DNA of 64,000 nt from Centroscyllium fabricii. Taxonomy: Eukaryota. Positions within the stretch are counted from its first letter, which is position 1, and each line of letters begins with the position of its first letter. The DNA lies in NCBI GenBank assembly GCA_051313645.2, contig JBNRSN020000017.1, positions 52,824,001-52,888,000 of the forward strand, read 5' to 3'. A model generated the notes under the pieces. The model searched no databases, was not told where the DNA came from, and saw nothing but the letters and a program-made list of their open reading frames with translations. Below, piece by piece: positions 3,912-61,464 of the stretch. A program made the translations under genes and the position numbers.

Positions 3912-5019
3912 CAGGTTGTGCACCGGTAATCCGTTACCCGATATGCCGGCAGCTTCAGTCTTCTGGAACAAACTGCCCCGACTGCCCCGCGCATGCGCAA
4001 AATGGCCGCCGCGATCGATGCTTCAGTGAATGATCTGCGCATGCGCCGCCGAACGGCGAGCGCATGCGCAGATCATTCAAAATGGCCGCCGGAGGCTGGA
4101 CCGACCTTTGCCACCTCATTTGTTATTTAAATGTTAGGAAGTGTGACGCCATCCACTTCGGCACTGAAAGGGGACGCCTAGATTAAACTCTTTATAATGT
4201 TAAGCTGAAAAAGTAGAGATCCAAATAGACTTAATGGTCCATGTATATATATTTATCAACAAATGGTTATAGACAAGTACAGAAAAGATTCAAAAATGCT
4301 AATTGAAAGGTGATTTGGAAGCTGAAGTGTTGATTTGATTGAAGAATTCATGATATTTAGTGGAATTGATAGTGTCAATACCGAGAAGTTATTTCTGATG
4401 ATATAAGCTGCCGGCATATCGAGGAGTACGGGACACAGCCTCAACATTAGTTCCAAGCCTTTCAGGAGAGACGTTGGTTTGGCAGAAATGTGTATCGCAC
4501 TCAGAAAGTGCAGTTAATGCTGGGTCAGTCGTCCAATTTAAACTCGAGATTGAGAGAGATTAAGGCATCTGGAGCTGCCGAACGGTATGGATCTGCCGCG
4601 GACAGTCACCAGGCTGCAGCTGTCAGCCCGAGTCCGGGCTCCCGTCACAATCCGGCTCGGCGGCAGCAGCAACCCCAAAGGCGATGGCGAGGGAAGGCGG
4701 ACCTACTGGACCCGACCCGCGCCTGCACAACCCTCCTTCCCCCCCCTGCAAGACCGGCCTTTCACTGCTGCCCGACAGCCCTAAAAGCAAAACGGAACGC
4801 CACAAAAGCCTGAGCCTGTCAAAAAACTTCGCGGCGGCCATTATTGCATGATCTGCGCATGCGCTCGCCGGTCGGCAGCCATTTCCAATGTTGTGCGCAT
4901 GCGTGCAGCCATTTTGAATGGTGTGCACATGCGCATTGTCCAACTTCATTCTCCCGGTTTTTTCACTTTCTCGGCATGGGCCTAGTCCCGCCCGTGCCGG
5001 ATTAATGGTGCACAACCTG
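3912..5019. mobile_element. Tigger/pogo-like (Tc1/mariner) MITE shell containing a decayed CR1 fragment (~4105-4570) and GC-rich filler
   Basis: TA|CAGGTTGTGCACCGGTAATCCG ... CCGGATTAATGGTGCACAACCTG|TA terminal inverted repeats with TA target duplication. Confidence 0.75.
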
Positions 5020-5329
5020 TAGCAACATTGATCGTTTCCATAAAGAAGTCCATGGACAGACAGTTTAATCTTCCCCATTGAAATTCCCCCTCTCCAGCTA
5101 AAGAAGGCAATCTGGAGTTGGAGATATTTTTGAGGAATCTACTTTATGTAATGCAAGTGAGGTGCACAAGCCAATTTGTTGCTGTTCAATTTCTTTGAGG
5201 AAGGAAAGCATCTTTTCTGATCTCATTGAATACCGGATAAATGATAGTTTTGGAAAAAGTACACTAGGTTTCTCATCATTAACACTTCGCAACTATGGAC
5301 CAAAATTTGCTGTAGCAGTGGCATCTGCC

Positions 5330-6261
5330 GTTAGTTGTACAGTACTTACCCCTGCACCCTTCAGTGCAAAAAAAAAAATTGCCCATAAAGTTGCTGGAAG
5401 TGCAAGCTGATACCAGTGCAGCGAGGGAAACAGGGCATCTGGGGCCTGAGTGAGCAGGGCAACCAACAGTGCATCTCCTTAACCAATGAGGTTTAAGGAT
5501 CGGGAAATTACCAGAGGAAGGACTGAGAAGGAGGGTGAATTCAAGGTGATAAATTCAATGTCAAATCAGGTACTGAAAAGAAATAAAAAGAGGACAAGAA
5601 AGATTGGAATAAGAGGGAAAAAAAGAGACAAAGGAAAAGTACAAAAAAGTTAAATATAAAATTTGACATTTTTAAAATTCCCCCCAAAAATTCAAAACCT
5701 GAAAGAATGGATCTCCACCCTTGAAATAGTTAATTTTCAGTGCCAGAGAGGTTAATTGACAGGCATTAACACTTAGCAAGTCATTAACACCACTACTTAC
5801 GCTTAAAATAACAAGACTTAACTCTCTGTGGTGCAATTAATGAGCAATACAGCAAGTTGCTAACAAAAAGGGAAAGCTGAGGCTAAGTTAGTTGTACAGT
5901 ACTTACCCCTGCACCCTTCAGTGCAAAAAAAAAAATTGCCCATAAAGTTGCTGGAAGTGCAAGCTGATACCAGTGCAGCGAGGGAAACAGGGCATCTGGG
6001 GCCTGAGTGAGCAGGGCAACCAACAGTGCATCTCCTTAACCAATGAGGTTTAAGGATCGGGAAATTACCAGAGGAAGGACTGAGAAGGAGGGTGAATTCA
6101 AGGTGATAAATTCAATGTCAAATCAGGTACTGAAAAGAAATAAAAAGAGGACAAGAAAGATTGGAATAAGAGGGAAAAAAAGAGACAAAGGAAAAGTACG
6201 AAAAAGTTAAATATAAAATTTGACATTTTTAAAATTCCCCCCAAAAATTCAAAACCTGAAA
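5330..6261 (+). repeat. 375-bp near-perfect direct duplication (5330-5704 and 5887-6261)
   Basis: Offset 557 bp; only one substitution seen by eye (gtacaaaaaag vs gtacgaaaaag). Confidence 0.9.
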
Positions 6262-8030
6262 ACCGGAAAGCTGTGCGTCGAGCCTGAGGAGGTGGGGGAG
6301 GTACTAAATGAATTCTTCTCTTCAGTATTCACAAAAGAGAGGGACGATACCGACATCGAAATCGGACAGAGTGTAGGGGGGGTAATCAAGGATATTACCA
6401 CTACAAGGGAAGAAGTTTTAGAAATCTTGGGAGGCTTAAAGGTGGACAAATCACCAGGGCCGGACGCAATGTTCCCCAGGCTGCTGTTCGAGGCCAGGGA
6501 AGAGCTTGCGGGCCCCCTGTCTCAAATCTTCAGGACCTCTCTCGCGTCAGGGGATGTACCTGAGGACTGGAGAACGGCTAATGTAGTACCCCTGTTTAAA
6601 AAGGGTAGTAGGGACAAACCGGGTAACTATAGGCCAATCAGTCTTACATCTGTAGTAGGGAAAGTAATGGAAAAAATTCTGAGGGACAAAATCAGCTCGC
6701 ATTTGGACAAACAAGGTCTCATAAGGGACAGTCAGCATGGCTTCGTCAAAGGTAAGTCGTGCCTGACTAACCTGTTGGAATTCTTTGAGGAGGTAACAAA
6801 GAGGGTGGATGAAGGGAGTACTGTGGACGTAGTGTATATGGACTTTAGCAAAGCTTTTGATAAAGTCCCACATAGGAGACTAATAACAAAGGTTAGAGCG
6901 CACGGGATTCAGGGCAACTTGGCACAGTGGATCGAAAATTGGCTAGGGGATAGGAGACAGAGGGTAATGGTAGAGGGCTGCTTCTGTGACTGGAAACCAG
7001 TAACCAGTGGTGTCCCCCAGGGATCGGTTTTGGGACCCTTACTGTTTTTAGTATACATCAACGATTTGGATATGGGAGTAGGGGGTATGATCAGCAAATT
7101 CGCTGATGATACGAAAATCGGAAGGGTGGTAAACAACGATGAGGATAGTAAGGGGCTTCAGGAGGATATAGATCTAATGGTTAATTGGGCAGAAAAATGG
7201 CAAATGGAGTTCAACCCAGAGAAATGCGAGGTCATTCAATTCGGTAGACCAAACGGGGTAAGGGAATATACCATGAACAACAAAACGTTAAATAGGACCG
7301 AGGAACAGAGGGACCTAGGGGTACAGGTGCACAGCTCCCTGAAGGTTGCTGGACACGTTAACAAGGTGGTTAAGAAGGCATACGGAATTCTGGCCTTTAT
7401 TAACCAGGGCATAGTATACAAAAGTAGGGAGGTAATGTTAAACTTGTATAATACACTGGTGAGACCCCAGCTGGAGTACTGTGTGCAGTTCTGGTCACCG
7501 CACTTCAGGAAGGACGTGGTTGCCCTGGAAAGGGTGCAGAGAAGGTTTACCAGGATGATACCTGGTCTGGGGGACTTATGCTACGAAGAGAGGCTGGACA
7601 GGCTGGGGTTGTTTGCCCTGGAGAAGAGAAGGTGGAGGGGTGACATGATTGAGGTCTACAAGATCATGAGAGGACACGATAGGGTAGATAAAGGGGCATT
7701 GTTTCCATTGGTGGGAGAGTCAAGTACTAGGGGACATAGATTCAAGATTAGGGGAGGGAGGTTTAGGGGGGAGGTAAGGAGAAATTTCTTTACCCAGAGG
7801 GTGGTGGAAGTCTGGAACTCCCTGCCTGTAAGGGTGGTGGAAACAGAAACCATCGCAACATTTAAAAAATATTTGGACCAGCACATGAAGGACCATAACA
7901 TACAGGGTTATGGGCCAGGTGCGGGCAAATGGGGTTAGTATAGCGAGGAGTTTCCTGGGCCGGTGCGGACTGGATGGGCCGAATGGCCCTTATCCGCACT
8001 GTAAAATTTCTATGATTCTATGATTCTATG
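6262..8030 (+). mobile_element. Young 5'-truncated CR1 LINE (second subfamily) with an uninterrupted RT frame
   Basis: ORF 6220-7938 has CR1 RT motifs (YMDFSKAFDKV, GVPQGSVLGP, FADD, RPQLEYCVQFWSP); (ATTCTATG)n tail at ~8007-8030. Confidence 0.95.
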
Positions 8031-8236
8031 AAGTTGCCGTTTTCACAAAGCTAACGGTGGAGTGGCACAACTCCGACAGCAACATTTGGATATTCACATA
8101 TTTAACCGCGCATCTGTCCCTCGTCTGAAGTTTCTGTACCATTTGCACATCAGTAATGGCGAGTACCATTAGCTTTGCCATTATTTTGACAGCAAATTCT
8201 GGATCAATATTGAGTGCAGAAAGATTCTTCTTCTGA

Positions 8237-15757: not shown

Positions 15758-16450
15758 CAGGTTGAGCACCGCTAATCCGGCACGGGCGGGACCAGGCCCG
15801 TGCCGGGAAAGTGAAAATCCCGAACGATTGAAGCTTCGGTGAGCGCATGCGCAGACCATTCAAAATGGCTGCCACGAAAGGCCGGTGGCCATTTTGAGTG
15901 GTCTGCACATGCGCTTTTCGTTCGGTAAGGCCCGGCTCGGGCAGGCTCAGTAAGGCCCGGTTTGGGGAGCCCCGGCTCGGGAAGGCTCGGTAAGGTGGGG
16001 CTCGGCCCGGCTCGGTAAGGCTCGGCGAGGCCAGGCTCGGGAAGCCCCGGCTCGGTAAGGCGAGGCCCGGCTCGGGAAGCCCCGGCCCGACTTGGCAAGG
16101 CTCAGTAAGGCGAGGCCCGACTTGGGAAGCCCCGGCCCAGCTCGGGAAGGCTCGGTAAGGCGAGGCCTGGCTCGGGAAGCCCTGGCCCGGCTCGGGAAGC
16201 CCTGGCTGAGTAAGGCGAGGCCCGGCCCGGGATCGTTCGGCAATGCATGTGCTGATCATTAAAAACTTTGCGGCGGCCATTGTGAATGATCTGCGCATGC
16301 GCTCGCCGTTCAGCGGCGCATGCGCAGATCATTCACTGAAGCATCAATCGCGGCGGTTATTTTGCGCATGCGCAGGGCAGTCGGGGCAATTTGTTCCGGA
16401 AGACTGAAGCTGCCGGCTTATCGGGTAACGGATTAACGGTGCACAACCTG
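15758..16450. mobile_element. Tigger/pogo-like MITE inserted in CR1
   Basis: TIRs CAGGTTGAGCACCGCTAATCCG / CGGATTAACGGTGCACAACCTG; splits the CR1 sequence ggata(ta)cttgc at a TA site. Confidence 0.9.
15925..16230. repeat. GC-rich compound minisatellite built from 5-bp modules inside the MITE
   Basis: Reiterated ggctcggtaaggcgaggcccggctcgggaagcccc. Confidence 0.85.
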
Positions 16451-17002: not shown

Positions 17003-17534
17003 CAGGTTGACCACCAGAAATCCGGCACGGGCGGGACCAGGCCCGTGCCGGGAAAGTGAAAAAAACGGCAGAATGAAGTCGGTCAGTGTGCATGCGCGCA
17101 CCATGCAAAATGGCCGCGCGCATGCGCACAACATTGGAAATGGCCGGCGAACGTCTTTGCGGAGTCTCAGCTGACGGCCAGCAGGCTGCTCCGGGAAACG
17201 CACGCTTCACCTTGGCGGGCGCTCGGGACTCGCACATTCAAAACGCGGCGCGAGCCGCCGCGCCCTGATGCCACGGAAGGCCCGGCGGCCGTTTTGAATG
17301 ATCTGCGCATGCGCTAGCCGTCCGGCGACGCATGCGCAGATCATTCAAAACACCCGGCAGCCGTTTTGAATGATCTGCGCATGCGCTCGCCGTTCGGCAG
17401 CGCATGTGCAGATCATTCGCCAAAGCCGCGATCGCGGCTGCCATTTTGCGCATGCGCAGTGCAGTCGAGGCAATTTGTTCTGGCAGACTGAAGCTGCCGG
17501 CGTTTCAGGTCACAGATTTTCGGTGCACAACCTG
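17003..17534. mobile_element. Tigger/pogo-like MITE
   Basis: TA|CAGGTTGACCACCAGAAATC...GATTTTCGGTGCACAACCTG|TA. Confidence 0.9.
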
Positions 17535-19089: not shown

Positions 19090-19734
19090 CAGGTTGAGCA
19101 CCGTTAATCCGGCACCCTTGAGACCAGGCTGGTGCCGGACCACTGAAAATTCCGAACCACTAAAGGTTCGGGGGGAGCGCGCGGTAGAACACTCCCTGGG
19201 GCCCGGAGCACGTGGATAGAACACTCCCCTTATAATAATAATAATTCAACTTTATTGTCATTATACAATGTACAAGTACATGAACAACGAAATGTGATCT
19301 TGCAAGCTCCCAAGAGTCCAGCAAAGCCGCTGCATCTGTGCGTGCCACCATTCCATCTTTCCATCATTCCAACAATCTTCAGCCAACCGCCCCTCCCCGG
19401 GGCTCCTTTCATGACCTTCTGCACCTGGTATTCCCTGGTGGTCACCCCTCCAAGTACTAACCAGGCCTGGCTCTGCTTAGCTTCCAAGCCTTGTCAGTGG
19501 CCCTGTCCCTAGTCCCAGGAACCGGGTTACTGGGAGCCCGGGGATAGAACACTTACAAGAACTGAAAAACCAGCAACCCAAACGCCCAACGCCTTCGGCG
19601 CTCGCCCACCCTTCGTGGGAAACGGCGGCGCTGCCGAGCGGCTGCTCCACAAACTGAAGGTCGCCGGTTTCGATTTGTGCTGAACCACTGAAGTTGCCGG
19701 ACCATCGGGTGCCAGATTACCGGTGCTCAACCTG
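19090..19734. mobile_element. Tigger/pogo-like MITE (second subfamily) with ~300-bp insert
   Basis: TA|CAGGTTGAGCACCGTTAATC...GATTACCGGTGCTCAACCTG|TA; insert ~19230-19530 is absent from the sibling copy at 21061. Confidence 0.88.
19421..19487 (-). pseudogene. 5S rRNA-derived fragment (or head of a 5S-derived SINE3)
   Basis: Minus strand GGAAGCTAAGCAGAGCCAGGCCTGGTTAGTACTTGGAGGGGTGACCACCAGGGAATACCAGGTGC matches the 3' half of vertebrate 5S rRNA. Confidence 0.85.
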
Positions 19735-21060: not shown

Positions 21061-21363
21061 CAGGTTGAGCACCATTAATCGGCACCCTCAGGACCAGGCC
21101 GGTGCCGGACCACTGAAAATTCCAAACCACTTAAGGTTCGGGGGGAGCGCGCGGGTAGAACACTCCCACGGGGCCCGGAGCGCGCGGGCAGAACACTCCC
21201 CGGGAGGGAGCCCGGGGGATAGAACACTTACAAGCCCTAAAAAGGCAGCAACCCAAACGCCCAACGCCTTTGCCGCTCGCCCACCCTTCGCGGGAAACGG
21301 TGGCGCCGCCGAGCGGCTGCTCCGCAAACTGAAGAGCGTCGGTTTCGATTTGTGCCGGACCAG
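21061..21363. mobile_element. Tigger/pogo-like MITE lacking its right TIR
   Basis: TA|CAGGTTGAGCACCATTAATC; colinear with 19090-19734 minus the insert. Confidence 0.85.
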
Positions 21364-22667: not shown

Positions 22668-25291
22668 AAGGTTTCATGGCATCAAGTCAAACATGGGCAA
22701 GGAAACCTCCTGCTAATTACCAGCTACCGCCCTCCCTCAGCTGATGAATCAGTACTCCTCCATGTTGAACATTAATTGGAAGAAGCACTGAGAGTAGCAA
22801 GGGTACAAAATGTCCTCTAGATGGGGGACTTCAATGTCCATCACCAAGAGTGGCTCGATAGCACCACAACTGACCGAGCTGGCCGAGTCCTAAAGGACAT
22901 AGCTGCCAGACTGGGTCTGCGACAGGTGGTGAGGGAACCAACAAAAGGGAAAAACCTACTTGATCTCATCCTCACCAATCTACCTGTTGCAGATGCATCT
23001 GTCCATGACAGCATTGGTGGAAGTGACCACCACACAGTCCTTGTGGAGATGAAGTCCCGTCTTCATGTTGAGGATACCCTCCGCCATGTTGTGTGGCACT
23101 ACCACCGTGCTAAATGGGACAGATTTCGAACAGATCTGGCAACTCAAAACTGGGCATCCATGAGACGCTGTGAGCCATCAGCAGCAGTAGAATTGTATTC
23201 AACCACAATCTGTAACCTCATGGCCCGGCATATCCCTCACTCTACCATTACCATCAAGCCGGGAGATCAACCCTGGTTTAACGAAGAGTGCAGGAGAGCA
23301 TGCTGTGAACAGCACCAGGCATACCGAAAAATGAGGTGTCAACCTGGTGAGGCTACAACACAGGATTACTTGCATGCCAAACAACAGAAGCAACATGTGA
23401 TAGACAGAGCTAATCAATCTCACAACCATCGGATCAAATCAAAGCTCTGCAGTCCTGCCACATCCAGTCGTGAGTGGTGGTGGACAATTAAACAGTTAAC
23501 AGGAGGAGGAGGCTCCAGAAATATCCCCATCCTCAATGATGGTGGAGCCCAGCACGTGCGTGCAAAAGACAAGGCTGAAGCATTTGCAACTATCTTCAGC
23601 CAGAAATGCCGAGTGGATGATCCATCTCGGCCTCCTCCTGAGGTCCCCAGGATCACAGATGCCAGTCTTCAGCCCATTCAATTCACTCCACGTGATGTCA
23701 AGAAACGGCTGAAGACACTGGAAACTGCAAAGGCTATGGGCCCTGACAACATTCCGGCAATAGTACTGAACACTTGTGCTCCAGAACTAGCTGCGCCCCT
23801 AGCCAAGCTGTTCCAGTACAGCTACAACACTGGCATCTACCCAGCAATGTGGAAAATTGCCCAAGTATGTCCTGTCTACAAAAAGCAGGACAAATCCGAC
23901 CCGGCCAATTACCGTCCCATCAGTCTACTCTCAATCATCAGCAAAGTGATGGAAGGTGTCGTCGACAGTGCTATCAAGCGGCACTTACTCAGCAATAACC
24001 TGCTAACTGATGCCCAGTTTGGGTTCTGCCAGGGCCACTCAGCTCCTGACCTCATTACAGCCTTGGTCCAAACATGGACAAAAGAGCTGAACTCAAGAGG
24101 TGAGGTGAGAGTGACTGCCCTTGACATCAAGGCAGCATTTGATCGAGTATGGCATCAAGGAGCCCTGGCAAAGCTGAAGTCAATGGGAATCAAGGGGAAA
24201 ACTCTCCATTGGTTGGGAATCATACCTAGCACAAAGGAAGTTGGCTGTGGTTGTTGGAGGTCATTCATCTCAACCACAGGACATCACTGCAGGAGTTCCT
24301 CAGGGCAGTGTCCTAGGCCCAACCATCTTCAGCTGTTTCATCAATGACCTTCCCTCCATCATAAGGTCAGAAGTGGGAATGTTCGCTAATGATTGCACAC
24401 TGTTCAGCACCATTCGAGACTCGTCAGATACTGACGCAGTCCGTGTCCATATGCAACTAGACCTGGACAACATTCAGACTTGGGCTGACAAATGGCAAGT
24501 AACATTCGCACCACACAAGTGCCAGGCAATGACCATCTCCAACAAGCGAGACTCTAACCATCTCCCCTTGACATTCAATGGCATTATCATCGCTGAATCC
24601 CCCACTATCAACATCCGGGGGGTTACCATTGATCGGAAACTGAACTGGACCAGCCATATAAATACTCTGGCTACAAGAGCAGGCCAGAGGCTGGGAATTC
24701 TGCGGCGAGTGTCTCACCTCCTGACTCCCCAAAGCCATTCCACCATCTACAAGGCACAAGTCAGGAGTGTGATGGAATACTCTCCACTTGCCTGGATGAG
24801 TGCAGCTCCAACAACACTCAAGAAGTTCGTCACCATTCAGGATAAAGCAGGCCGCTTGATTGGCACTCCATACACCACCTTCAACATTCACTCCCTCCAC
24901 CACCGACGCACTGTGGCTGCAGTGTGCACCATCTACAAGATGCACTGCAGCAACTCGCCAAAGCTTCTTCAACAGCACCTTCCAAACCTGCGACCTCCAC
25001 CACTTAGAAGGACAAGGGCAGCAAACGCATGGGAACAGCACCACCTACAAGTTCCCCTCCAAGCCACACACCATCCTGACTTGGACCTGTATCGCCGCTC
25101 CTTCACTGTCGCTGGGCCAAAATCCTGGAACTCCCTTCCTAACAACATTGTGGGTGTACCTACACCATATGGACTGCAGCAGTTCAAGAAGGCGGCTCAC
25201 CACCATCTTCTCAAGGGCAATTAGGGATGGGCACTAAATGCAGGCCTAGCCAGCTAGCGACGCCCACATCCCATCAATGAATTAAAAAAAA
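22668..25291 (+). mobile_element. CR1/L2-group LINE distinct from the HER1-like CR1s, 5'-truncated, frameshifted near 24220
   Basis: ORFs 22821-24347 (MGDFN, LDLILTN, NYRPISLLS, LDIKAAFDRV) and 24241-25224 (GVPQGSVLGP, FAND); tail aaggcggctcaccaccatcttctcaagggcaattaggg followed by an A-run. Confidence 0.9.
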
Positions 25292-27058: not shown

Positions 27059-27329
27059 CAGGTTGAAGACCGTTAATCCGGTATCTGAAAAACAGGCAGC
27101 TTCAGTCGTCCGGCATAAATTGCCCTGACTGCCCTGCGCAAGCACAAAATGGCCACCGCGATTGATGCTTCAGCGAATGATCTGCGCATGTGCTGCCAAA
27201 TGGCGAGCGCATGCGCAGATCATTCAAAATTTGGTGGCGTTTTGAATGCCGTGGCTTCAATCAATTGGCGTTTTCAAGAGTCCGGTAGGGTGCTGGTCCG
27301 ACCCTGCCGGATTAACGGTGTTCAACCTG
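27059..27329. mobile_element. Tigger/pogo-like MITE (short form)
   Basis: TA|CAGGTTGAAGACCGTTAATCCGG...CCGGATTAACGGTGTTCAACCTG|TA. Confidence 0.9.
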
Positions 27330-28660: not shown

Positions 28661-29379
28661 ATTGGCCCAGAAATTCGGGTTGGAGGCTTCCCACGAGTGC
28701 AAGCTTCCAACCTGCACTTACCTAGCGCGCCGGCCGTTGAGCTGTGGGCCCGCATGGAATTCCGACGCGGGGCCTTCCTGAACTGCTGGCGCGCCGCGCT
28801 CCCGGATCCCAGCGGCGAAGATAGTGCGAGGGATCGCGCTGGATCACGTGGGCCACGGAGAGCACAGAATGCTCCATTCATAAGTTTGATAGGAAGACCT
28901 GTCAAACTTATGAATACTACAACCCCAAAACCTCAGTAAATTTTCAAATACATTTTTTAAAAACATCAATTTTTTAAAAATAACTATCAATTACATAAAT
29001 TAGCTATTGTAAACAAATATTTAAAATTTTGAAAAAAATAATTACATGTTTTTAATGGGGCTAAAAATAAACAACCTGTGGAAAAAAAAATTAAAATTGA
29101 ATTAATTCACCACTTACCCTCTGAAAAGGGGTCTTTGCGCATGAAAATAGGAGCTGTATCTTTCTCCATACTTACCCGCACACAGACCTGTAAAAAAAAA
29201 ATCGAAGTCCATTGCGCTGCCGCGCACGCGTTCCGACCCCTGACCCCTTCTGTCAGGGGATCGGAAGTGCCGGTTTTGCGCACATGCGCTGTGCATGCAT
29301 GAAACCGGCACTTCGGATGGGCGTACGGATGAGTACCCAGCGCGTACACGCGCATTGGGAACGGAATTTCTGGGCCAAT
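28661..29379. mobile_element. Harbinger-like MITE
   Basis: TIRs ATTGGCCCAGAAATTC / GAATTTCTGGGCCAAT, subterminal hairpins, AT-rich centre; sibling copy at 38318-39053. Confidence 0.75.
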
Positions 29380-34728: not shown

Positions 34729-35096
34729 CAGCGGTCCCCAACCTTTTTTGGACCACGGACCATTTTGAGCTAGACAATTTTTTCACGGGGCGGGGGGGTG
34801 CTGGCGGGGTTCTTTTCACTGACCGGGGGGGGGTGCTGGCGGAGTTTTTTTCACTGAGCGGGGGGGGGGGGGTGCTGGCGAGGGTTTTTTGACAGGCCGG
34901 GGGGGGTGCTGCTGCCGAGGGTTTTTGGACCTGGCGGGGGGGTGCTGCGGCGGGCGGCGAACATTCCTTCTGCCGCTGCGGCCCGGGGCGGAGGGAGCTG
35001 GGGTGCGGGCGGCGAACATTCCTTCTGCCGCTGCGGCCCGGTAAAAATGTTCCACGGCCCGATACCGGGCCGCGGCCCAGCGGTTGGGGACCCCTG
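34729..35096. mobile_element. hAT (Charlie-like) MITE, G-tract rich
   Basis: TIRs CAGCGGTCCCCAACC / GGTTGGGGACCCCTG; perfect 8-bp TSD TGTTGATG (34721-34728, 35097-35104). Confidence 0.92.
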
Positions 35097-38317: not shown

Positions 38318-39053
38318 ATGACCCAGAAATTTGGGGCCCAACGCGTGAGTACGGACGGTGTACTCACGCGTGGGCCCATCGGAATTGCATGTTTCCGGCA
38401 TGCACCGCGCATGCGTGCGAAACCGGAAATTCCGATCCAGGGACAGAAGGGGTCAGATGTCCGAGCGCGTGCGCGCCAGGGGGTGCGCAATGCACTGCCG
38501 ATTTTTTCACAGGTTTGTATCAGGGTAAATATTTGAAAACTTTACGGCTGATATTTTCAAGCGCAAAGAGTGGATTTCATCAGGTAAGTCTTTATTTTAT
38601 TCAATTTAAACATTTTTTTCCACAGGTTTTTCATTTTTAAATAACATACCCGTTAAATACTTTAATTATTTTTTTCAAAATTTTTATTTTTTGTTTAAAA
38701 TAGCTAATTTATGATTGATAGCAATTTTTAAAAATGTGATTTAAAAAAATATATATTTTAAGATTTAGTGTGGTTTTGGGGCTGTAGCAATTCATAAGTT
38801 TGACAGGTCTTCCTGTCAAACTCATGAATGGAGCATTCTTTGCTCCGATTGGCTCCCCGCGGACCATGTGATCCTGCGCGGAGCCTCGCACTAACTCCGA
38901 CGTTCAGAGGCACCAGCGCGGCGCACCGGCCTCTCAGCAGGGCCTAGGATCGGGATTTCAAGCGGGTGGAATCGGGAACGGCAGGCGCGCTCCGTAAGTG
39001 TGGGTTGGAGGCTTGCACTCGCGGGAAGCCTCCAACCCGAATTTTTGGGCCAT
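38318..39053. mobile_element. Harbinger-like MITE, inverted sibling of 28661-29379
   Basis: TIRs TGACCCAGAAATT / AATTTTTGGGCCA; shared internal blocks in reverse orientation. Confidence 0.75.
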
Positions 39054-40852: not shown

Positions 40853-41185
40853 AAGGTACACAATCCTTTATCCGAGACGGGTCTCGGTTTTTGGGATTTC
40901 TCGGTTTTTGGATGGTGCCCAGTGCGCATGCGCATTGCCATGTTTGCGGTCCAGTTCGCAGTCGGGGAACGGCATATCGACGGTTTATTTCCTCAGCACG
41001 GCATCAACAGCAACCTGTAAGCTTGCCTTAAAGTAAAAATATCTTTTTTCTCACTGATAAATGCTGCAGCTGGTCACTTCCTTCAATTTATTTAAGAAAA
41101 AAAATAGTTATTTTGGCGCAACTCGGGTTCTCGGTTTTCGGAGCTTTTCGGTTTTCGGATGTGCGGTTAAGCGATTGTATACCTG
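40853..41185. mobile_element. Tigger-like MITE (third family)
   Basis: TA|AAGGTACACAATCCTTTATCCG...CGGTTAAGCGATTGTATACCTG|TA; contains TGCGCATGCGCA. Confidence 0.75.
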
Positions 41186-44303: not shown

Positions 44304-44632
44304 TTATGCCTTCTTGCACTTGCCTTTCTTCTCCCTCTGTTGGAACTTTCGCAGCCTCCTTGCCCACGTGTCCCTCCATTGTATCACCAAACTGGTTTTG
44401 TTTGCTACAACCCCATTCTGGTCAGGAGAGTCCTCGTCGTTCCCTAAGAGCAGGTACTTCTTCCCCGTTTTGACTTTTGGGCATTTGCAGGCTACATCCT
44501 TTGAGCGGACCCACAGGAATTGGTCGCCACGCCGTATCCGTTTTACCCCTTGTTTGTACACCGAGATGATATTCACTGTAAACTTCCACCATTCACCGGC
44601 CTTCTCTGCCTTCAAGATGTGGGCTTGAACAG
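44304..44632 (-). CDS. NTN1: Netrin-1, last coding exon (NTR/C345C domain)
   Basis: Acceptor ttcttcgttattgcAG then (A)[28 protein letters not shown]...[24 protein letters not shown], near-identical to the vertebrate netrin-1 C-terminus. Confidence 0.96.
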
Positions 44633-44666
44633 CTGCAATAACGAAGAAAGGAACAGAAGAATATTT

Positions 44667-45076: not shown

Positions 45077-47891
45077 TTATATCAATATTTAAGCTGCCCG
45101 ACACATTATAAATTGCACCATGTAAATTCTCCACACTTCAAATGCAGCCACAACCCTGAGCTGTAACCTAGTTGTTTGGATGACCACTCATTATTAGCAT
45201 AGCAACAGTTTCCATAGTATCTGGGGCAGAGAAGATGCAGCGAGACTCAGGGCTATGAAATAAACTTGACATAGGAAACTGATTAATGTTTGACAGAGGA
45301 TATAATCAAAACCTTAGAAACCAATTTTCTTCCCCAGCCCAAGTACAAGAAGATTATTCCTACATGGTGGTAAATCATTCTTAATCAGCACAGTAAAATG
45401 TTGAAATACAGAAAGCAGGGGGGAGAAAACTGATCAGACATCAGAAAATCTGCACTGCCTCTGTTCCAGAGGTTAAGAACTGTTAAACTAGAAGCTAATT
45501 AGAAAGACTAGAACAAGTGATTGTTTATACCTAAGGAAATTTACTGTGTGCTGTTAGTTGTCAAACAGTAGTTCATAATGTGCTTACATTCCTTCAGCTG
45601 CACATGTGAGAACCACAGAGCAGATTTCAATGGCAGTTTGTCACTGTCCATGCTCTCTGTCTGCCCTGGTCATTTGCCTTTGTATCACACATTCTTACTC
45701 TTTCTGCTGGTCATTCAGTATTCTAAACTCGCCTTTCTTCCCTTCTAAACAATACCAGTTAAAAGTATTCTATTCGCATTGAATCAGGGCAAGTGAGCCT
45801 TAATATTAAATAAAAAATTATAAACTGCCATTTCTGTTCATTGCTAGTTTTCAATCTTTTTAGCTTTACTTTATGATTAAATGAAGATTTTGCATATGTG
45901 ATTCTGTGCTTCGTGCAGCCAGAAGCACCTACTGTTGAGTCACATTATGCTGCAGGTCGTTTCTGGTTTAACACCAACTTAGTGAGAACTTCTACCTTGT
46001 CGCTAGAGTATCCTTGACATTTTAACGCTCTAAGCAGTGTTTTATATAACTTTCTGCTCATTTAGAGATTTTCTGAAGCAGCGCATTTAAAAATTACATT
46101 TACAAACAATTCTGATTAATTTCTGCAGACTTTAATTTTTTCAGACTACTTTTGTTGAGTTTTAATTTTTTAGTTCAAATAGTCAACAGCAACATCCTCA
46201 TCGGAGAGCTGTTTTGGTGGAGTTTTGGAACCCAAATTTAGAAAACAGTCGATTTAACGTCAGTGGAGATGGCAACTGTACCAGCATGCTTCAGAGTTCT
46301 TCACACTGTTTAGTGCAGTAATTCATTTAAAATAGTCACTGAAATGATTTTCAAATAAAAATGTGAAATACAATTAATAAGATTTGTCACTTTTTTTTAT
46401 TTTAAAAATGGGCCTATTTCAATATGCACCGTGCTCACTGGTTAATTATGTTGACTGCAGCTGGTAAAATGTCATTTTTCAATAGCTACATTATCAAACT
46501 GTATAGCTCTTTGTTTTAATATAAGTAGAATAAGATAGCCTTTAGTATGTTTATATGCTTCAAAATTTTAAGAAAAAGTCAAAGAAATTTGCAATGTCTT
46601 CTGTACAAATCTGCCATGATGTCGGACATTAGAAATGTGTGCCAATAAAATTAAGCACTCTTATTTAGTAGTCCAGCCAAAAATCAGTGTGCCTTCCCTA
46701 GTGAGGGGAGGGGAATTTGACTGTGATTTAATTGTACAATGTGTTTTTGGGACTGCACCAATCTGCTGGTTCAAGGGTGGGTCGATGGTGTGTGGATGCA
46801 TCATGACCAGATGGGGTGGACCTGACCAGTCTTTTCCCACCTTCTTTTGTACGTTATGTTGTAATTGAAAAAATTGAGATACAAGCAGCTTACCCCAGCA
46901 CCGATTTGAGAAATTGGTGTTGGGAAATCCCAATCACTACTGGGAGGAATGGCCTGCAATCAGAGGGTTAATGCTGAGAGCCTCAGATCATTCCAACTGC
47001 CTTTGTTGATCCATGCCTGAATGTTTCTCTGGTGCTGTAAAAGTCTACCACACACCAGTGTACATGCCATCCTTCTGAAAGAGTACTGTGAGCCCCTCCA
47101 CTGTTTTTAATTATGATGTGTGGCATCATGAAAACAGAACTGGTTCTGACTGATTCAATTGTGCCTCAGTGTTTGGCTCATTGTTGTGGAAAGCAGCGAG
47201 GAAGCAGTTCCTCAAACAATTGACCTTTTTCTACTGAGAAGAAAAGGAAATCTGCCTAATGCAGGAGGCAACCGAGGGGCAGGGAAAGCTGGGAAAATGC
47301 ATTTGGCAGAACGGACTGGAAGGTAACGTGTCTTGAAACAACAGAAGCAATATTGCATTCTGTAAATCTGTTTATAAAGTTAATCTATCTGGAGGTGTCC
47401 AATGTCAGGGTACAGGATTTACTAACAGCCATATTCTGTTATGAAAATAAGACAATGTTTCTTATGGAAAGGAAGGCTTTAGATACCCCATATAACAGTT
47501 GTATTCTGAAAACAAGTCTGGGTTCTTTGACCTAGGTTGTTCTTTGGCACATTGAAGGGAACGGATTCTATAAAACATAATGATGAAACCACCCATGGGT
47601 TGAGTCACAGTCTATATGTTTAGGTGCTGATAGTTCACCCACTTCACCACACCCGTAGTCTGTTATTGGGAATGGGAATTAACCATCAGATGATCACAGG
47701 GCCATGACTTTCACAGCTGTGGTGAGCATTTGATGTAAATACAGCTCAAATCTCACTCTGTATCTTTAGTGTAAACCAACAAAAGTATTCTAGTTAGATT
47801 CCCAGTGGGAAATATAACAAGCGTTAACTTTTAAGTTATTAGTGGAGAGGACTTTGATATAAGCATGTTACGGGTTCATACATTGCCAATA

Positions 47892-48286
47892 CAGGTCTGA
47901 CACCGTTAATCCGGCACTGGCGGGACCAGGCCAGTGCCGGATTGGTGAAAAATCCGAACGATTGAAGCTTCGGCGAGCGCATGCGCAGACCATTCAAAAT
48001 GGCCACCGCGAAGGCCGGCGGCCATTTTGAATGGTCTGCGCATGTGCTCGCCGAAGCATCAATCATTCGGGGAGAGGCCCAGGCATGCGCAGCCAAGCGT
48101 GGTGGCCATTTTGCGCCTGCGCAGCCAAGCGCGGCAGCCATTTTGCGCATGTGCAGACCAGTCGGGGAGAGGCCCGGGCATGCGCAGCCAAGCGCGGTGG
48201 CCATTTTCTGCATGCGCAGACCAGTCGGCCGGATTCGTTCCGGACGACTGAAGTTTCCGGAGTCCGGATTAACGGTGCCGGACCTG
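47892..48286. mobile_element. Tigger/pogo-like MITE with tandem internal repeats
   Basis: TA|CAGGTCTGACACCGTTAATCCGG...CCGGATTAACGGTGCCGGACCTG|TA. Confidence 0.9.
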
Positions 48287-48997: not shown

Positions 48998-49633
48998 CAG
49001 GTTGAGCACCGGTAATCCGGCACCCTCGGGACCAGGCCGGTGCCGGACCATTGAAAATTCCGAACCACTGAAGGTTGAAGAAGGGATCGAAAACTTACTG
49101 ATTTGTACTTCAGAGTGAGGGATTGGCAGAGATAATTGATGGGGCTGAATGTGTGGCCAGAGGCTTCCCGCGGGGAAATGCCACCGATCCACAAATAAAT
49201 TGTCCGCCTACCTGGTGGTCCAGGAGGTACGGAGATTCGCGGTCCTGAGACTCTCCGGGTGCTGGCGGGTAGAGGCCCACGTATCCCGGGCGTCCCTGGG
49301 ATCATGTGGGCTGGCCTAACGAATGAGAGAAGGGAATCCCCATTCATTCTTATCGGTATTCCGTATGTATGGAAACCCCATAAGAATGAATTAGAAGACC
49401 CCAGAAAATACACCTAGACATCAAATAAATAAAAATAATCACACATTTAAAATTAATTAAAATGGCATTTAATTAAATATTTAAAACAAAAATTTAATTT
49501 TTTGAAAAATAAATTTACATGCTTTACAGCGGGAAACGGTGGTGCCGCCGAGCGGCTGCTCCGCAAACTGAAGACCGCCGGTTTCAATTCGTGCCGGACC
49601 TCTGAAAGTGTCGAACCACCGGTGCTCAACCTG
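48998..49633. mobile_element. Tigger/pogo-like MITE shell with foreign interior (~49075-49528)
   Basis: TA|CAGGTTGAGCACCGG...CCGGTGCTCAACCTG|TA; ends match the 19090 and 21061 copies, the middle does not. Confidence 0.8.
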
Positions 49634-50657: not shown

Positions 50658-50697
50658 GTGAACTGAACTACAAAAGCGCTAAATAGAAAAGCACTTT

Positions 50698-52839: not shown

Positions 52840-52997
52840 CAGGTTGAACACCGTTTATCCGGTAACCAAAAAGCCGGCAACTTCAGTCGTCCGGCATAAA
52901 CCGCCCCGACTGCTATGCGCATGTGCAAAATGGCCGCCGCAATCGATGCTTTGGCGAATGAGCTGCGCATGCGCTGCCGAATGGCGGGAGCATGCGC

Positions 52998-54970
52998 AGA
53001 CCTGAAGATTGGGAGCAGTTCAGGATACAGCAAAGGAGGACAAAGAGATTAATCAGGAGGGGGAAAATAGATTACGAAAGTAAGCTTGCGGCAAACATAA
53101 AAAACGACTGCAAAAGCTTTTATAGGTATATCAGGAGGAAAAGATTGGTAAAATCCCAAGTCGGTCCCTTGCGGTCTGATTCAGGGGAATATATAATGGG
53201 GAATAAGGAAATGGCAGACCAATTAAATTCATATTTTGGTTCTGTCTGCACAAAGGAGGACACAAATAACCTCCCTGGGATATCGGGAAACATGGGGACT
53301 AATGCAAGGGAGGAGCTGACAGAAATCAGTATTTCTAAGGATATGGTGTTGGGGAAGTTGAAGGGATTGAAGGCCGACAAATCCCCAGGGCCTGATAATC
53401 TACATCCTAGGCTACTTAAGGAGGTGGCCCTGGAGATAGTAGATGCCTTAATGATCATTTTCAGGAACTCGATAGACTCGGGAACAGTACCCACGGATTG
53501 GAGGGTAGCAAATGTTACCCCACTGTTTAAAAAGGGGGGTAGAGAATCAGCAGGGAATTATAGACCAGTAAGCCTTACATCAGTAGTAGGCAAAATGCTA
53601 GAGTCCATTATTAAGGATGTAATAGCGGAGCACTTGACAAATAGGGATGGGATCGGACAGAGTCAACATGGATTTACAAAAGGTAAATCGTGCTTGACTA
53701 ATCTATTGGAATTCTTTGAGGAAGTAACTGGTAAAATGGATGGGGGAGAGCCAGTAGATGTGGTGTACCTTGACTTCCAGAAAGCCTTCGATAAGGTCCC
53801 ACATAAAAGATTAGCATGCAAAATCAAGGCTCATGGGATTGGGGGCAAAGTACTGACGTGGATAGAGAACTGGCTGGCTGATAGAAAACAGAGAGTTGGA
53901 ATAAACGGCTCGTTTTCTGAGTGGCAGGTGGTGACTAGTGGGGTGCCGCAGGGATCTGTCCTGGGACCCCAGCTGTTCACAATATATATTAATGATCTGG
54001 ACCAGGGAATTGGATGCAACATCTCCAAATTTGCAGACGACACTAAACTAGGAGGGGGGGTGGGCTCTGATGTCAGGAAGCTCCAGTGCGATTTGGACAA
54101 GTTGGGGGAATGGGCGGATACATGGCAAATGCACTATAATGTGGATAAATGGGAGGTTATCCACTTTGGGGGCAAAAACAGGAGGGCAGATTATTATTTA
54201 AATGGCAATAGATTGGGAGATGGGGAAGTGCAGAGAGACCTGGGTGTTCTTGTGCACCAGTCACTGAGGGCGAGCATGCAGGTGCAACAGGTGGTTAAGA
54301 AGGCAAATAGTATGTTGGCCTTCATATCAAGAGGGTTCGAGTATAGGAATAAAGATACCTTACTACAGCAGTACAAGGCACTGGTGAGACCACACCTTGA
54401 GTATTGTGTACAGTTTTGGTCACCTCATCTGAGGAAGGATGTTCTTGCCATGGAAGGAGTGCAGCGGCGATTCACCAGGCTGATACCTGGAATGGCAGGA
54501 ATGACCTACAAGGAGAGATTGTGTAGTTTGGGCTTGTACTCGCTGGAGTTTAGAAGATTGAGAGGAGATCTCATAGAAACATATAAAATTCTGACAGGCC
54601 TGGACAGGTTAAATTCAGAAATAATGTTTCCAATGGTGGGGGAGTCCAGAACCAGGGGCCACAGTCTAAGGATAAGGGGTAAACCATTTAGGACAAATAT
54701 GAGGAAGAATTTCTTCACCCAGAGAGTGGTGAGCCTGTGGAATTCCTTGCCATAGAGGGCAGTGGAGGCCAGTTCATTAAATATATTTAAGAGGGAATTG
54801 GATACATTTCTTCAGGCTAAAGGGATTAAGGGTTACGGAGAGAAGGCGGGGACAGGGTACTTAACTTGAAAGATCAGCCAAAGATCAGCCATGATCTCAT
54901 TAAATGGCGGAGCGGGCTTGAAGGGCCGAATGGCCTACTCCTGCTCCTATCTTCTATGTTTCTATGTTTC
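52998..54970 (+). mobile_element. 5'-truncated CR1 LINE, same subfamily as 1-2157
   Basis: ORF 52992-54755 has a full RT motif set; premature stop near the C-terminus; (TTTCTATG)n tail. Confidence 0.95.
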
Positions 54971-55678
54971 TAAAACTTCATGGCGGCCATTCCCAATGGT
55001 AAGAATCTGCCGCTCACTCCGGCCTCACTCCTTCAGCGCTGCCCAGGACCGGGCTCCGACTGCTAACTCTCCCTCGCCAACCATTCTCGAATTCGGTTCT
55101 CTCGTGTTGTTAGTGCTGTGTTGGGCCTGCAGCCTGGGCCTCGATTTATGGTTGTAGGTGGGGTGGAGGGGAGAGTCCCATCCTGTCTGCCTGGTGCGCC
55201 GAGCCGAGGGATCTTTGCACGGCGGGTTCTGGGCCGCGGGTTGTTTTTGTCCCCACTAACCGGGTGATGTGAACTCTGGCTCCCTGTGCGTTTATTGTAA
55301 CTCATTACAGGGACTCCACGGGTTTGCTTTTTGAATTGGTGCAGTAGCTGCCGTTTACCATAATGTATGGACTCAGGCTGCAGCTACACTGCAGGTGATC
55401 AAAACTTCCGGCGGCCATTTCCAATGGTGTGCGCATGCGTGCGGCCATTTTGAATGGTGTGCGCATGCGCACTGGCCGGCTTCATTCTTCCAGTTTTTTC
55501 GCTATCCCAGCGCGGGCCTAATCCCGCCCGTGCCGGTATAACGGTGTTCAACCTGTAATATAATATTAATCCAAGATTGAGTCATTTTGGAAAGGCAAAG
55601 ATATAGCAATGTGTTCATTTAGATTTGGACAATGGATCAGCTGCATGGTGACTATTGAAGAACCAGACAAATCAGTAC

Positions 55679-57104: not shown

Positions 57105-57825
57105 TGATAGCAAAATACTGCAGATGCTGGAAATCCGAAATAACAACAGAAAATGCTGGAAAACCTCAGCAGGCCAGGCAGCATCGGTGAAGAGATATAG
57201 AGTCGATGTTTCGGGTTAGGACCCTTTGTCAAGAGTAAAGCCAGGAAATGAAACAGGTAGGAAGGCCGGGGGAGCTGGGAGGGAACAAAAGGGAAGAGAG
57301 AAAAAAAAAGGCCAAATAAAAGATCCCACTCTGATCTCTCATGTCCTTGGCCTATTACAGTGTTCCTCGGAAGCTCAGCGTAAACTCGAGGAACAACACC
57401 ACATCTTCCGATTAGGCACTTCACAGTCCTTCGGACTCAATATCGAATTCAACAATTTCAGATCATAACTTTGCCCCCTATTATATTTTTACCTATTTTT
57501 ATCCACACCTTTCATTTGGCCTTTTCTCTCTCGTGGCAGCCGCCTCCCATTCTGCCAGTGCTTTTCACACCTAATCTATAGCTGTCTCCTGTCCACAGCC
57601 CCGTCAGCATATCGTCTCATTTTGAATACCTCTTCATCTCTTTTCACTTTGGCTCTCTCTTCTCTTGTTTTTTCTTCCCTTTTGTTCCCTCCCAGCTCCC
57701 ACGGCCTTCCTACCGGTTTCATTTCCTGGCTTTAGTCTTGACAAAGGGTCCTAACCCGAAACGTCAACTCTATATTTCTCTCCACGGATGTTGCCTGGCC
57801 TGCTGAGATTTTCCAGCATTTTCTG
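57105..57825 (+). mobile_element. PLE (family C): inverted pLTR, GIY-YIG C-terminus and direct pLTR; hammerhead variants at 57201-57236 (-) and 57734-57769 (+)
   Basis: ORF 57226-57468 ends RKLEEQHHIFRLGTSQSFGLNIEFNNFRS*; 17-bp TSD TTGTTGCCCATCTTGTA (57088-57104, 57826-57842). Confidence 0.88.
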
Positions 57826-58009
57826 TTGTTGCCCATCTTGTAGTCTTTTCTCCTACCCTATGTGCTTTTCCACTCGGACATGCCTTGTATGTTCTTTCAA
57901 TTTCTCTAAATAACTCTCCATTTAATTGTTTGGTCAGTCCCAGTGAGTAACAATCTGGCGTATTAAAAAAACTTCTTTAATCTTTCTGTGTACACCAGCC
58001 ATTAAAGTA

Positions 58010-59091: not shown

Positions 59092-59361
59092 GGTTGGAAT
59101 AACGTTCTGGTTCTTAAGGAAAAGTTATCTTGTGGTTTACAAAGCCACTTTTCCTGAAGAACCAAAAAACTGTTTAGGAGTACTTTTGCCCACTTTAGCT
59201 ATTACGATTGCTCTCTATAGTTCCCCATTCATCCACAGCTGACAGCATGGGGTCCTGCTCATATGCCTCTGTCAGTGCTGCTCGGAGGTCAACTGTTGTA
59301 AGTTTGTGAATGGCCCAGGATGACTCCCTGTAGGGAAGCAATTAAAGCCTCCTCCCAGTGA

Positions 59362-59579
59362 TGATGTGGAGTTGCCAGTGTTGGACTGGGGTGGACAATT
59401 GTAAGAAGTCACACAATACCAGGTTAAAGTCCAACAGTTTTATTTGAAATCACAAGCTTTCGGGGCGTAGCTCCTTCATCAGGTTTATACACCTGATGAA
59501 GGAGCTACGCTCCGAAAGCTTGTAATTTCAAATAAAACTGTTGGACGATAACCTGGTGTTGTGTGACTTCTTACAATTG
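59362..59579. mobile_element. Fold-back pair of PLE family A pLTR ends with hammerheads at ~59451-59485 (-) and ~59490-59524 (+)
   Basis: Inverted repeat centred near 59487; 12-bp direct repeat TCCTCCCAGTGA (59350-59361, 59580-59591). Confidence 0.85.
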
Positions 59580-59739
59580 TCCTCCCAGTGACACTGCTAA
59601 GACCAGAAACTGAGCATGTAGAGAATTGCAAGTTGGACTTGTATCTCATCACTTCCTCACGCAAGATTGGTGCTCTGACCTGTCATGTCACCACCATGCA
59701 GACCAATTATTTTCTTACAGTAAGCGGCAGCTAACAGAA

Positions 59740-60243
59740 TAGAAACATAGAAGATAGGAGCAGGAGTAGGCCATTCGGCCCCTCGAGCCTGCTCCGCCAT
59801 TCAATGAGATCATGGCTGATCATCCAAACCAAGTACCCTGTCCCTGCCTTCTCTCCATATCCCTTGATCCCTCTAGCCTTAAGAAATACATCGAACCCCT
59901 TCTTGAATATATTCAATGAACTAGCCTCCACCGCCCTCTGTGGCAGAGAATTCCACAGGTTCACCACTCTCTGGGTGAAGAAATTCCTCCTCATCTCTGT
60001 CCTAAATGAGTTACCCCTTATCCTTAGACTATGACCCCTGGTTCTGGACTCTCCGATCATCGGGAACATTTTTCCTGCATCAAGTTTGTCCAGTCCTGTT
60101 AGAAATTTATACGTTTCGATGAGATCCCCTCTCAATCTTCTAAACTCCAGAGAGTACAAACCCAGTCTACCCAGTCACTCCTCATACGTCATTCCTGCCA
60201 TCCCAGGTATCAGCCTGGTGAATCTTCTCTGCACTCCCTCCAT
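59740..60243 (-). mobile_element. CR1 3' fragment, near-identical to the end of 1-2157
   Basis: ORF 59731-60159 matches the C-terminus of ORF 353-2071. Confidence 0.92.
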
Positions 60244-60397
60244 GTCAGGTGTTGGCAATTGATTTTGCAATGATTCAGGCAGAGCGATTTTCCCTCATCC
60301 CGTTCAAACCTTCATACAGAGGGGTTGTCTCTCTCTATCTGCTTAACTCTTGCTGATTCTTAATTTACATCTAAAATCAACAGTAGACTTTTTATCA

Positions 60398-60734
60398 GAA
60401 AACGCTGGAAAAACTCAGCAGGCCAGGCAGCATCGGTGGAGAGAGGAACAGAGTTAACGTTTCAGGTCGATGACCTTTCCTCAGAACTGAAGAAACCAGG
60501 AGGAGGGGAATAGATTTTAAAGCTAGTAGGGGCTGGGGAAAGGGGGAGGGGCTTACCCCAGCCCCCACCAGCTTTCAAATCTATCCCCTCTCCTGGTTTC
60601 TCCAGTTCTGAAGAAAGGTCATCGACCTGAAACGTTAACTCTGTTCCTCTCTCCACCGATGCTGCCTGGCCTGCTGAGTTTCTCCAGCGTTTTCTGTTAG
60701 TTTGGAGTTCCAGCATCCGCAGTATTTTGCTATC
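60398..60734. mobile_element. Fold-back pair of PLE family B pLTRs with hammerheads at 60452-60488 (-) and 60604-60640 (+)
   Basis: Inverted repeat centred near 60548; flanking direct repeat GTAGACTTTT(T)ATCA (60383-60397, 60735-60748). Confidence 0.85.
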
Positions 60735-61047
60735 GTAGACTTTTATCAAGTGTTTTTGTAGTTTGAGCACTTGCTGAGTCACTGGAGCACTCTACAGTCT
60801 CATGCCTGATGAATGGGCACTTGGGCGCGGTGCAGCTGAGCTGCCAGTGCACATGAGCCATATGAGTCACCCTCTTCAGGAGAATCGTAGTATGCTACAG
60901 CACAGAAGGAGGCCATTCAACCCATTGTGCCTGTGCCAGAATATTTGGTAGAGCTCTCCAATTAATCGAACTCCTCTGCTCTTTCCCCATAGCCCTGAAA
61001 TGTGTTTCCTTTCAAGTATTTATCCAATTCTCTTCTGAATGTTACTG

Positions 61048-61464
61048 CAAGTTGAGCACCGTTAATCCGTTACCCGAAAAACTGGCAGCTTCAGACGTCT
61101 GGCAAAGATTTCCCCGACTGCCCTGCACATGAGCAACATGGCCACCGCGATTGGCTGCGCATGCCCGGGCCTCCCTGAACGATTGATGCTTCGGTGAATG
61201 ATCTGCGCATGCGCCGCCGAACAGCGAACGCATGCGCAGACCATTCAAAACTTCGACAGCCATTTTGAATTATCTGCGCACGCGCCGCCGAACGGCGAGC
61301 GCACGCGCCGCCGAACGGCGAGCGCATGCGCAGATCATTCAAAATTTTGCGGTGGCCATTTTGAATGATCTGCGCATGCGCCACCAAAGCTTCAATCATT
61401 CGGCGTTTTCAACAATTCGGTGGGTGCTGGTCCCGACCCTGCCGGATTAACGGTGTTCAACCTG
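61048..61464. mobile_element. Tigger/pogo-like MITE inserted in CR1
   Basis: CAAGTTGAGCACCGTTAATCCG...CGGATTAACGGTGTTCAACCTG|TA. Confidence 0.88.

Follow-up and report, generated by a model that had tools for sequence, protein, structure and literature searches.

The window studied here is a stretch of 64,000 nucleotides from the shark Centroscyllium fabricii (contig JBNRSN020000017.1, positions 52,824,001 to 52,888,000), and it harbours a family of miniature transposable elements with inverted repeats (MITEs), most of which carry arrays of NRF1- and YY1-type motifs. It also contains, as context only, the last coding exon of netrin-1 (44304..44642, minus strand; exon start approximate), and is rich in CR1-type and other long interspersed element (LINE) frames. 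The MITEs sit downstream of the netrin-1 last exon and on its intron side, where no promoter was seen. The family has CAGG-type terminal inverted repeats (TIRs) and is represented by nine complete elements and one truncated copy (at 21061), in agreement with an earlier note on this DNA, which had counted about ten elements with TIRs and TA target-site duplications.

The TIR pattern, searched with up to three mismatches, gave 15 matches in the window and none in shuffled controls, and a looser scan (up to seven mismatches) recovered 19 real ends and one chance match at 45469. TA was observed on both flanks in six of the nine complete elements, the left flank being TC or TG in the other three, and it precedes 296 of 340 family ends collected from the genome. 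An exact 2-bp duplication could be read from uninterrupted paralogues of the host repeat for the elements at 61048 (eight matches) and 15758 (five matches); no empty paralogue was found for the remaining six of the eight insertion sites checked. The TIRs are short (about 20–24 bp), as in Tigger/pogo-type MITEs. Unsplit copies in the window span 271–1108 bp and have no long conserved frame inside.

We observed the NRF1 10-mer, GCGCATGCGC, 20 times in the window against 0.02 expected, with 19 of the 20 inside the family. The second motif, AANATGGCNGC, occurs 10 times (0.6 expected), each time inside the family, and from its consensus we take it to be a YY1 site. The motif identities proposed earlier were right, GCGCATGCGC being the preferred NRF1 site (PMC10810270). 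The motif pair said to abut at 3989–4010 is present. Both motifs belong to a unit of about 30 bp, composed of the NRF1 palindrome and AAAATGGC, which lies at a set distance from each end and has been multiplied via tandem and inverted duplication. The description of the elements as consisting largely of the motifs holds for these units, whereas the motifs themselves make up 3–28% of each motif-bearing element.

The copy at 3912..5019 (1108 bp, TA on both sides) has NRF1 10-mers at 3989, 4037, 4060 and 4855 and an AT-richer interior of about 730 bp, and that at 15758..16450 (693 bp) encloses a GC-rich tandem array (15928–16232). The copy at 17003..17534 belongs to a young 532-bp subfamily, whose best copies are 95–96% identical to the one in the window and whose non-CpG divergence from the consensus is about 0.9%. 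Shorter motif-bearing copies lie at 27059..27329 (271 bp, TA on both sides), at 47892..48286 (395 bp) and, inside a repeat, at 61048..61464 (417 bp), where contigs of four public runs skip 419–420 nt. The second of these has a 55-bp inverted duplication and 32-bp tandem units (single-stranded DNA fold z = −14), and sits on the upstream side of netrin-1's last coding exon, about 3.2 kb away and presumably in an intron. The place given earlier as 52840/55400 is motif-bearing as stated; 52840 and 55555 are the two ends of a single element (52840..55555) split by a CR1 LINE (reverse-transcriptase frame 52962–54755) and by short interspersed element (SINE) sequence. The array is found in most copies and not in all, as three elements share the TIR without having an NRF1 site. 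These are a member of the motif-free sibling subfamily B (19090..19734, with a repeat of about 290 bp inserted at ~19230–19520), a B copy without the second TIR (21061..21362), and an element with subfamily-B ends and a different interior (48998..49633), possibly a case of cargo capture between such ends.

The six unsplit motif-bearing copies have a GC content of 0.51–0.64 and a CpG observed/expected ratio (o/e) of 0.96–1.33, in a window of 44% GC and CpG o/e 0.49. The copies are CpG-rich as had been claimed, but their background is CpG-depleted and not strongly AT-rich. A CpG island is defined by GC above 50%, CpG o/e above 0.6 and a length of at least 200 bp, and the motif-bearing copies have these sequence properties.

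Next, we estimated the abundance of the family from 120 stretches of 10 kb (1.2 Mb; GC 49%, CpG o/e 0.59) taken at round coordinates on the larger contigs of the 7.21-Gb genome, a sample that is evenly spread and not strictly random. It contained 50 family ends in 25 of the 120 stretches, corresponding to about 150,000 elements genome-wide (bootstrap 93,000–213,000); the density in the window is several times the genome average. A looser end pattern gave 55 matches, three of which were discarded by eye as chance, and the 52 real ends comprised 36 motif-bearing ends, 13 of the motif-free sibling B (25%) and three unassigned. Contigs of three other coded runs (X6, X10 and X11) cover the element, indicating that relatives share it. 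Contigs guessed to be RNA from one other organism also cover it; such contigs cannot show starts or strand. Three further runs guessed to be RNA, and the DNA run X14, gave practically no coverage of the element, blanks to which we attach no weight.

Perfect NRF1 10-mers number 55 in the sample, 150 times the order-4 Markov expectation, and this 10-mer was the most frequent of the palindromic 10-mers listed. The extrapolated number of perfect sites in the genome is about 330,000 (bootstrap 190,000–490,000). All 55 sampled sites lie in non-autonomous DNA transposons of three superfamilies, namely 46 in this family, three in a second Tigger-type MITE, five in Harbinger-like elements (AWT flanks) and one in a hAT MITE (8-bp duplication), where some reference sequences used for the assignment came from those same loci. 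The superfamily labels are presumed from the end and duplication patterns. Other promoter motifs were not enriched in the sample (BANP 0, ZNF143 0; NFY, USF and RFX at expectation), so the family is not a general promoter mimic. In the same sample AAGATGGCGG and TGACGTCA stood 15-fold and 5-fold, respectively, above the Markov expectation.

The DDE_1 profile gave at least 150 scored matches in the genome. The dominant autonomous family is about 2.38 kb long and encodes CENP-B_N, HTH_Tnp_Tc5 and DDE_1 domains, the layout of Tigger transposons, which have TIRs of about 20–24 bp and are reported from Chondrichthyes (PMC9219625). A relative of this family, L135 (1629–3977), has intact ends and an uninterrupted frame, 679 aa long when counted from its first ATG, and is a candidate transposase source. 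Its ends and those of the MITE are in register, sharing CAG, ATCCGG at positions ~19–24, CGGGAC, a further CCGG and, at the 3′ end, an A-run; three spaced CCGG boxes are common to the 5′ ends. The shared CCGG boxes are confined to the terminal ~65 bp, and the motif units start inward of them, at about position 76–86. Identity to the dominant autonomous family amounts to 29–36 of 50 positions without gaps at the right ends and 24–28 of 46 at full-length left ends; TIR positions 5–16 of the MITE are unlike the autonomous families found. This register places the family among Tigger-type MITEs, and the CCGG boxes common to the MITE and autonomous Tigger are the predicted transposase sites. As far as its sequence goes, the family is a Tigger-type MITE by every feature examined, its own parent excepted. 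We looked for a cognate parent with CAGGTTGAG ends in 80 transposase loci, taken from 1715 + 1017 candidates (profiles PF03184 and PF03221) and made up of 30 DDE_1 loci, another 20 DDE_1 places and 30 HTH loci, and found none. Three autonomous Tigger end types were recovered (CAGGAAACTC, CAGTAAACTC and CAGGTTCACA), none of them CAGGTTGAG, and a comparison of the Tigger protein with solved structures gave no match.

Several Tigger copies on contig C967 keep frames of 558 aa. A second Tigger family (L132–L134) has CAGGTTCACAATCCC ends and frames of 505–619 aa, and a different Tigger-type MITE in the window (40855..41183, ends approximate) has ends like those of this second family and one perfect NRF1 site at 40924.

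It is conceivable, though in our estimate quite unlikely, that the motifs are inner subterminal repeats for a protein encoded by an element, either the parental transposase that was not found or a partner, instead of sites for host NRF1 and YY1. Their set distance from both ends, their conservation at the level of the CCGG boxes, and the absence of a CAGGTTGAG-ended parent among the loci examined would fit such a protein. However, the repeats shared with autonomous elements are the terminal CCGG boxes; no NRF1 10-mer is native to the related autonomous Tiggers, the matches in those loci being inserted MITEs, and sibling B, whose ends are the same, lacks the motif. The core is also present in hAT and Harbinger-like elements, which are moved by unrelated enzymes. 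For these reasons the possibility raised in the earlier note, that the motifs are transposase-binding repeats, appears unlikely. A search for the NRF1 DNA-binding family in the genome also returned a single host gene and no transposon-borne copies. This gene has five exons at one locus, and its DNA-binding exon is identical to the solved human domain at 53 of 56 positions, including R206, N242 and R244, the base-reading residues (PMC10810270).

We monitored the decay of resident copies in three gap-poor subfamilies, with 29 copies of each; the query itself and the sites at which it is mutated were excluded. The copies are the best matches among thousands of candidates, and divergence is therefore underestimated. 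In the 47892 type 22% of CpG dinucleotides had changed to TpG/CpA, in the 17003 type 7.5% and in B 15%; the corresponding transitions of non-CpG C/G were 2.2%, 0.63% and 2.5% per base, giving ratios per base of about 5, 6 and 3. Six control repeats (LINE, SINE and Tigger) gave ratios of 2.4–5.5 (pooled 3.7). Real CpG islands are unmethylated in the germline and should show no such excess of CpG decay; the MITE copies do show it. The proposal that the elements are methylation-resistant modules is contradicted, on average in the germline, by CpG transitions at 5–6 times the non-CpG rate, as in the control transposable elements (TEs).

Two subfamilies showed the same extent of decay for NRF1 CpGs as for other CpGs (45/199 vs 171/834; 21/289 vs 109/1467), and the pooled odds ratio was 0.88. 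In the 61048 type NRF1 CpGs decayed less (5/63 vs 99/381, p = 0.001), at three sites only. Apparent protection of NRF1 CpGs in early counts (31/366 vs 195/1464; 58/747 vs 257/2247; 13/110) failed to replicate in two gap-free subfamilies, and what is left of it is a tentative signal of one subfamily. An apparently low decay of CCGG boxes, seen in one count, was absent in another. Flank-anchored NRF1 sites were still intact in 63 of 122 cases.

These counts bear on the view that the copies act as functional promoters or enhancers for the host, spread by the family as methylation-resistant CpG islands. The earlier note's idea of a promoter cassette found no support. The composition of the copies, which pass as CpG islands by sequence, and the reduced decay in the 61048 type are in line with it; NRF1 and YY1 are moreover cardinal promoter motifs (PMC3820735), and some Xenopus MITEs lie at liver open chromatin (PMC12676858). 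However, CpG decay in two subfamilies is within or above the control range, the pooled odds ratio is 0.88, and barely half of the anchored NRF1 sites are intact. The decay also agrees with the hypermethylation of TEs in the elephant shark (PMC5437953). We consider this view very improbable for the family as a whole, although a few co-opted copies acting as host promoters or enhancers are possible. The CpG richness is a reflection of CpG-rich source copies and young age, and not of resistance. The consensus CpG o/e is 1.25–1.33 for motif-bearing subfamilies, compared with 0.72 for the autonomous core.

Next, we compared subfamilies with one another. The 327 ends fell into clusters with seven consensuses for the right end, which take in 132 of 160 ends, and 12 for the left, which take in 133 of 167; six right and eight left motif-bearing ones were used to test constraint. 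Variable columns made up 2 of 36 NRF1/YY1 positions and 29 of 51 flanking positions (Fisher p = 3e-7). The longest invariant block at both ends was the NRF1 10-mer, alongside the CCGG, CGGGAC and GAAAA boxes. At the right end the linker between two motifs varied in 5 of 9 columns, the motifs on either side of it in 0 of 18. Other small palindromes in the ends (GAAGCTTC and GCGATCGC) vary between subfamilies. One left-end cluster (L23; for example L108 and L197) has CCCACGTGATCC and a CTCGCGA stretch before the first NRF1 site, which we take to be E-box-like and BANP-like, respectively.

Sibling B has a homologous unit at the same position. Once shifted by one base, it matches the motif unit at 19 of 30 bases, a level reached in 0 of 50,000 shuffles; where B departs from the nearest subfamily, 9 of 18 motif positions are affected as against 13 of 90 elsewhere (p = 0.002). 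This homology suggests that the motifs were made or erased by point changes inside a unit native to the MITE, and capture of a host promoter as a block appears unneeded to explain them. Neutral decay within subfamilies, taken together with conservation between them, points to constraint on source lineages and not on resident copies.

A simpler account, which is possible but on balance unlikely, is that the unit is an accident of a CpG- and palindrome-rich MITE interior, that slippage and template switching in the course of gap repair multiplied it, and that its motifs look conserved only through recent shared ancestry, module swapping between subfamilies or hairpin correction. The strong internal inverted and tandem duplications would be expected from it, as would neutral CpG decay in resident copies and the success of the motif-free sibling B. 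Ends also recombine between subfamilies (mixed left/right pairings), and the flanks of the core are common to other MITEs. What this account does not readily explain is the variable right-end linker between invariant motifs, the lack of conservation in the other end palindromes, and the clustering of the sibling B differences on motif positions.

The reading we tentatively favour, at somewhat less than an even chance, is that binding of host NRF1 and YY1 keeps source copies open for a Tigger transposase acting in trans, with selection on the element and resident copies decaying like methylated DNA. The transposase would act on the CCGG boxes, and methylation would hinder its binding to these CpG-containing boxes, by analogy with CENP-B, whose binding is hindered by methylation. 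NRF1 and YY1 bound to a small number of source copies that lack methylation, or to copies fresh from gap repair, would keep the ends accessible, and lineages with intact sites would out-amplify others. After insertion, methylation would set in and the copies would decay neutrally. The motifs would enhance mobility without being required for it. The combination of neutral decay within subfamilies and conservation between them would then arise because the sequence matters for copying and not for the host; the ratio of motif-bearing to motif-free ends (36:13 among the 52), the location of all 55 sampled perfect NRF1 sites in non-autonomous DNA transposons, the consensus CpG o/e and the precedent of rice Ost35 and mPing are counted in favour of this reading. 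The suggestion in the earlier note that the family uses host factors to aid transposition thus receives indirect support, from the motif conservation between subfamilies.

Several points weigh against host-factor use. The constraint test left out sibling B and two left-end clusters of different layout, and when B is included the right-end motif columns vary in 10 of 18 cases, compared with 25 of 34 for flanking ones. The concentration of B differences on the motifs is significant for three of six subfamilies only, and depends on moving the unit by one base, which the MAFFT alignment does not do. The columns of the alignments are not independent of one another, and several of the consensuses are built from 3–5 copies. 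Sibling B makes up a quarter of the ends and itself keeps a CpG o/e of 1.10. A tree of the ends has supports of 47–73% and cannot tell motif gain from loss. The NRF1 palindrome occurs in five context clusters as against four for the next two-CpG palindrome, which makes convergence across superfamilies weak evidence, and the shared flanks (GATCT beside the core) suggest module exchange. NRF1 binding is sensitive to methylation and methylated sites are not expected to be bound, so a protected source pool must be assumed. Finally, the motif could be bound by a protein of the true parent, which the search did not recover.

A more far-reaching version, which we regard as doubtful, is that perfect NRF1/YY1 sites arose by point mutation in the transposons' own repeat unit as a selfish 'stay-open' cassette, shielding source copies from methylation for a CpG-reading Tigger transposase. 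The cassette would have spread to hAT and Harbinger-like elements, seeding the ~330,000 NRF1 sites, so that methylation would have to hide these decoys from the single host NRF1.

Two Harbinger-like non-autonomous elements lie in the window, at 28664..29376 (GGCCCAGAAATT ends, AWT flanks, one near-NRF1 site) and 38320..39051 (two near-NRF1 sites); the label Harbinger is our assumption for this type. The family to which they belong (also at L064, L069, L173, L201, L216 and L223) is abundant, 710–1150 bp long and non-autonomous, with CpG-rich ends, an AT-rich core, an NRF1 site only in some subfamilies, and CpG decay about twice the background. The ~470-bp interior of the element at 48998–49633 recurs elsewhere (89% identical in L224) and by eye looks like these elements. 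A hAT-type MITE (34729–35096; also L054, L086 and L286) has an exact 8-bp duplication and an internal tandem array of 35–37 bp, with NRF1 sites in some copies elsewhere. In L286 the flanks of the NRF1 site resemble the Tigger MITE unit, suggesting module exchange between superfamilies. The segment 52130–52570, which starts with TACAGGTTGACAG, is single-copy (no second match in the fetched sequence) and has a 38-bp tandem unit that resembles the MITE unit in containing ACGCATGCGCAGATC; a GCTTTT/GGTTTT array comes next. Among the LINEs, young reverse-transcriptase frames of 500–630 codons are located at 185–2071, 6217–7938, 52962–54755 and 22821–25224, and long inverted repeats of another repeat family at 59389–59586, 60393–60699 and 57191–57779 (99–115-bp arms, 92–95% complementary). 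A search of Rfam with the window gave no match; a bacterial promoter scan was empty, and is irrelevant to the question.

If the constraint reflects host-factor use, the family would offer a sequence-level answer to the question of how, in vertebrate genomes with heavy methylation, non-coding MITEs amplify beyond their autonomous partners. The motif-bearing subfamilies (A) and motif-free B, with the same ends, form a natural matched pair for a direct test. With an estimated ~330,000 perfect NRF1 sites, all sampled ones in transposons, this genome lends itself well to asking whether methylation guards against factor titration, and it offers a large stock of raw material from which promoters could be born. 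Should the neutral account be true, the family is an ordinary, abundant shark MITE. In the literature that could be searched, we found no description of NRF1/YY1 arrays in MITEs. The family was set against the literature rather than Dfam or Repbase, and may be deposited under a generic name. The Tigger-type MITE class itself is known; the new aspect is an NRF1/YY1 interior under apparent element-level constraint.

Human MER46/Tigger4-type ends offer a comparison for Tigger derivatives. Tigger (pogo) transposons and their non-autonomous derivatives (PMC9219625) resemble the present system in the TA duplication, the short TIRs and a partner of about 2.4 kb with CENP-B_N, HTH_Tnp_Tc5 and DDE_1 domains; the family here differs in its about 150,000 non-coding copies, whose interior of NRF1/YY1-type units the autonomous elements lack. 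Housekeeping CpG-island promoters (PMC3820735, PMC10810270) have the identical core motif, homotypic NRF1 clusters and high GC and CpG, whereas the MITE copies decay at CpG like methylated DNA. The Xenopus elements hAT-N16, Harbinger-N12A and Kolobok-N2 (PMC12676858) are MITEs of a vertebrate as well, and have direct or palindromic repeats in their interior together with predicted factor sites, 'NRF' among them for Harbinger-N12A. That report, however, interprets a few dozen copies as domesticated by the host; its 'NRF' citation refers to NFE2L1, a different protein, and its accessible portion contains no NRF1/YY1 array, methylation-decay test or claim of element-level selection. In the rice Stowaway element Ost35 and in mPing, MITEs are moved in trans by a related transposase, and internal sequences raise transposition and explain the high copy number (PMC3660474, PMC9921582). 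There the effect was measured, and that of mPing was ascribed to general DNA features such as GC content and not to a shared motif, whereas here exact host transcription-factor sites are conserved and an effect on mobility is what we infer.

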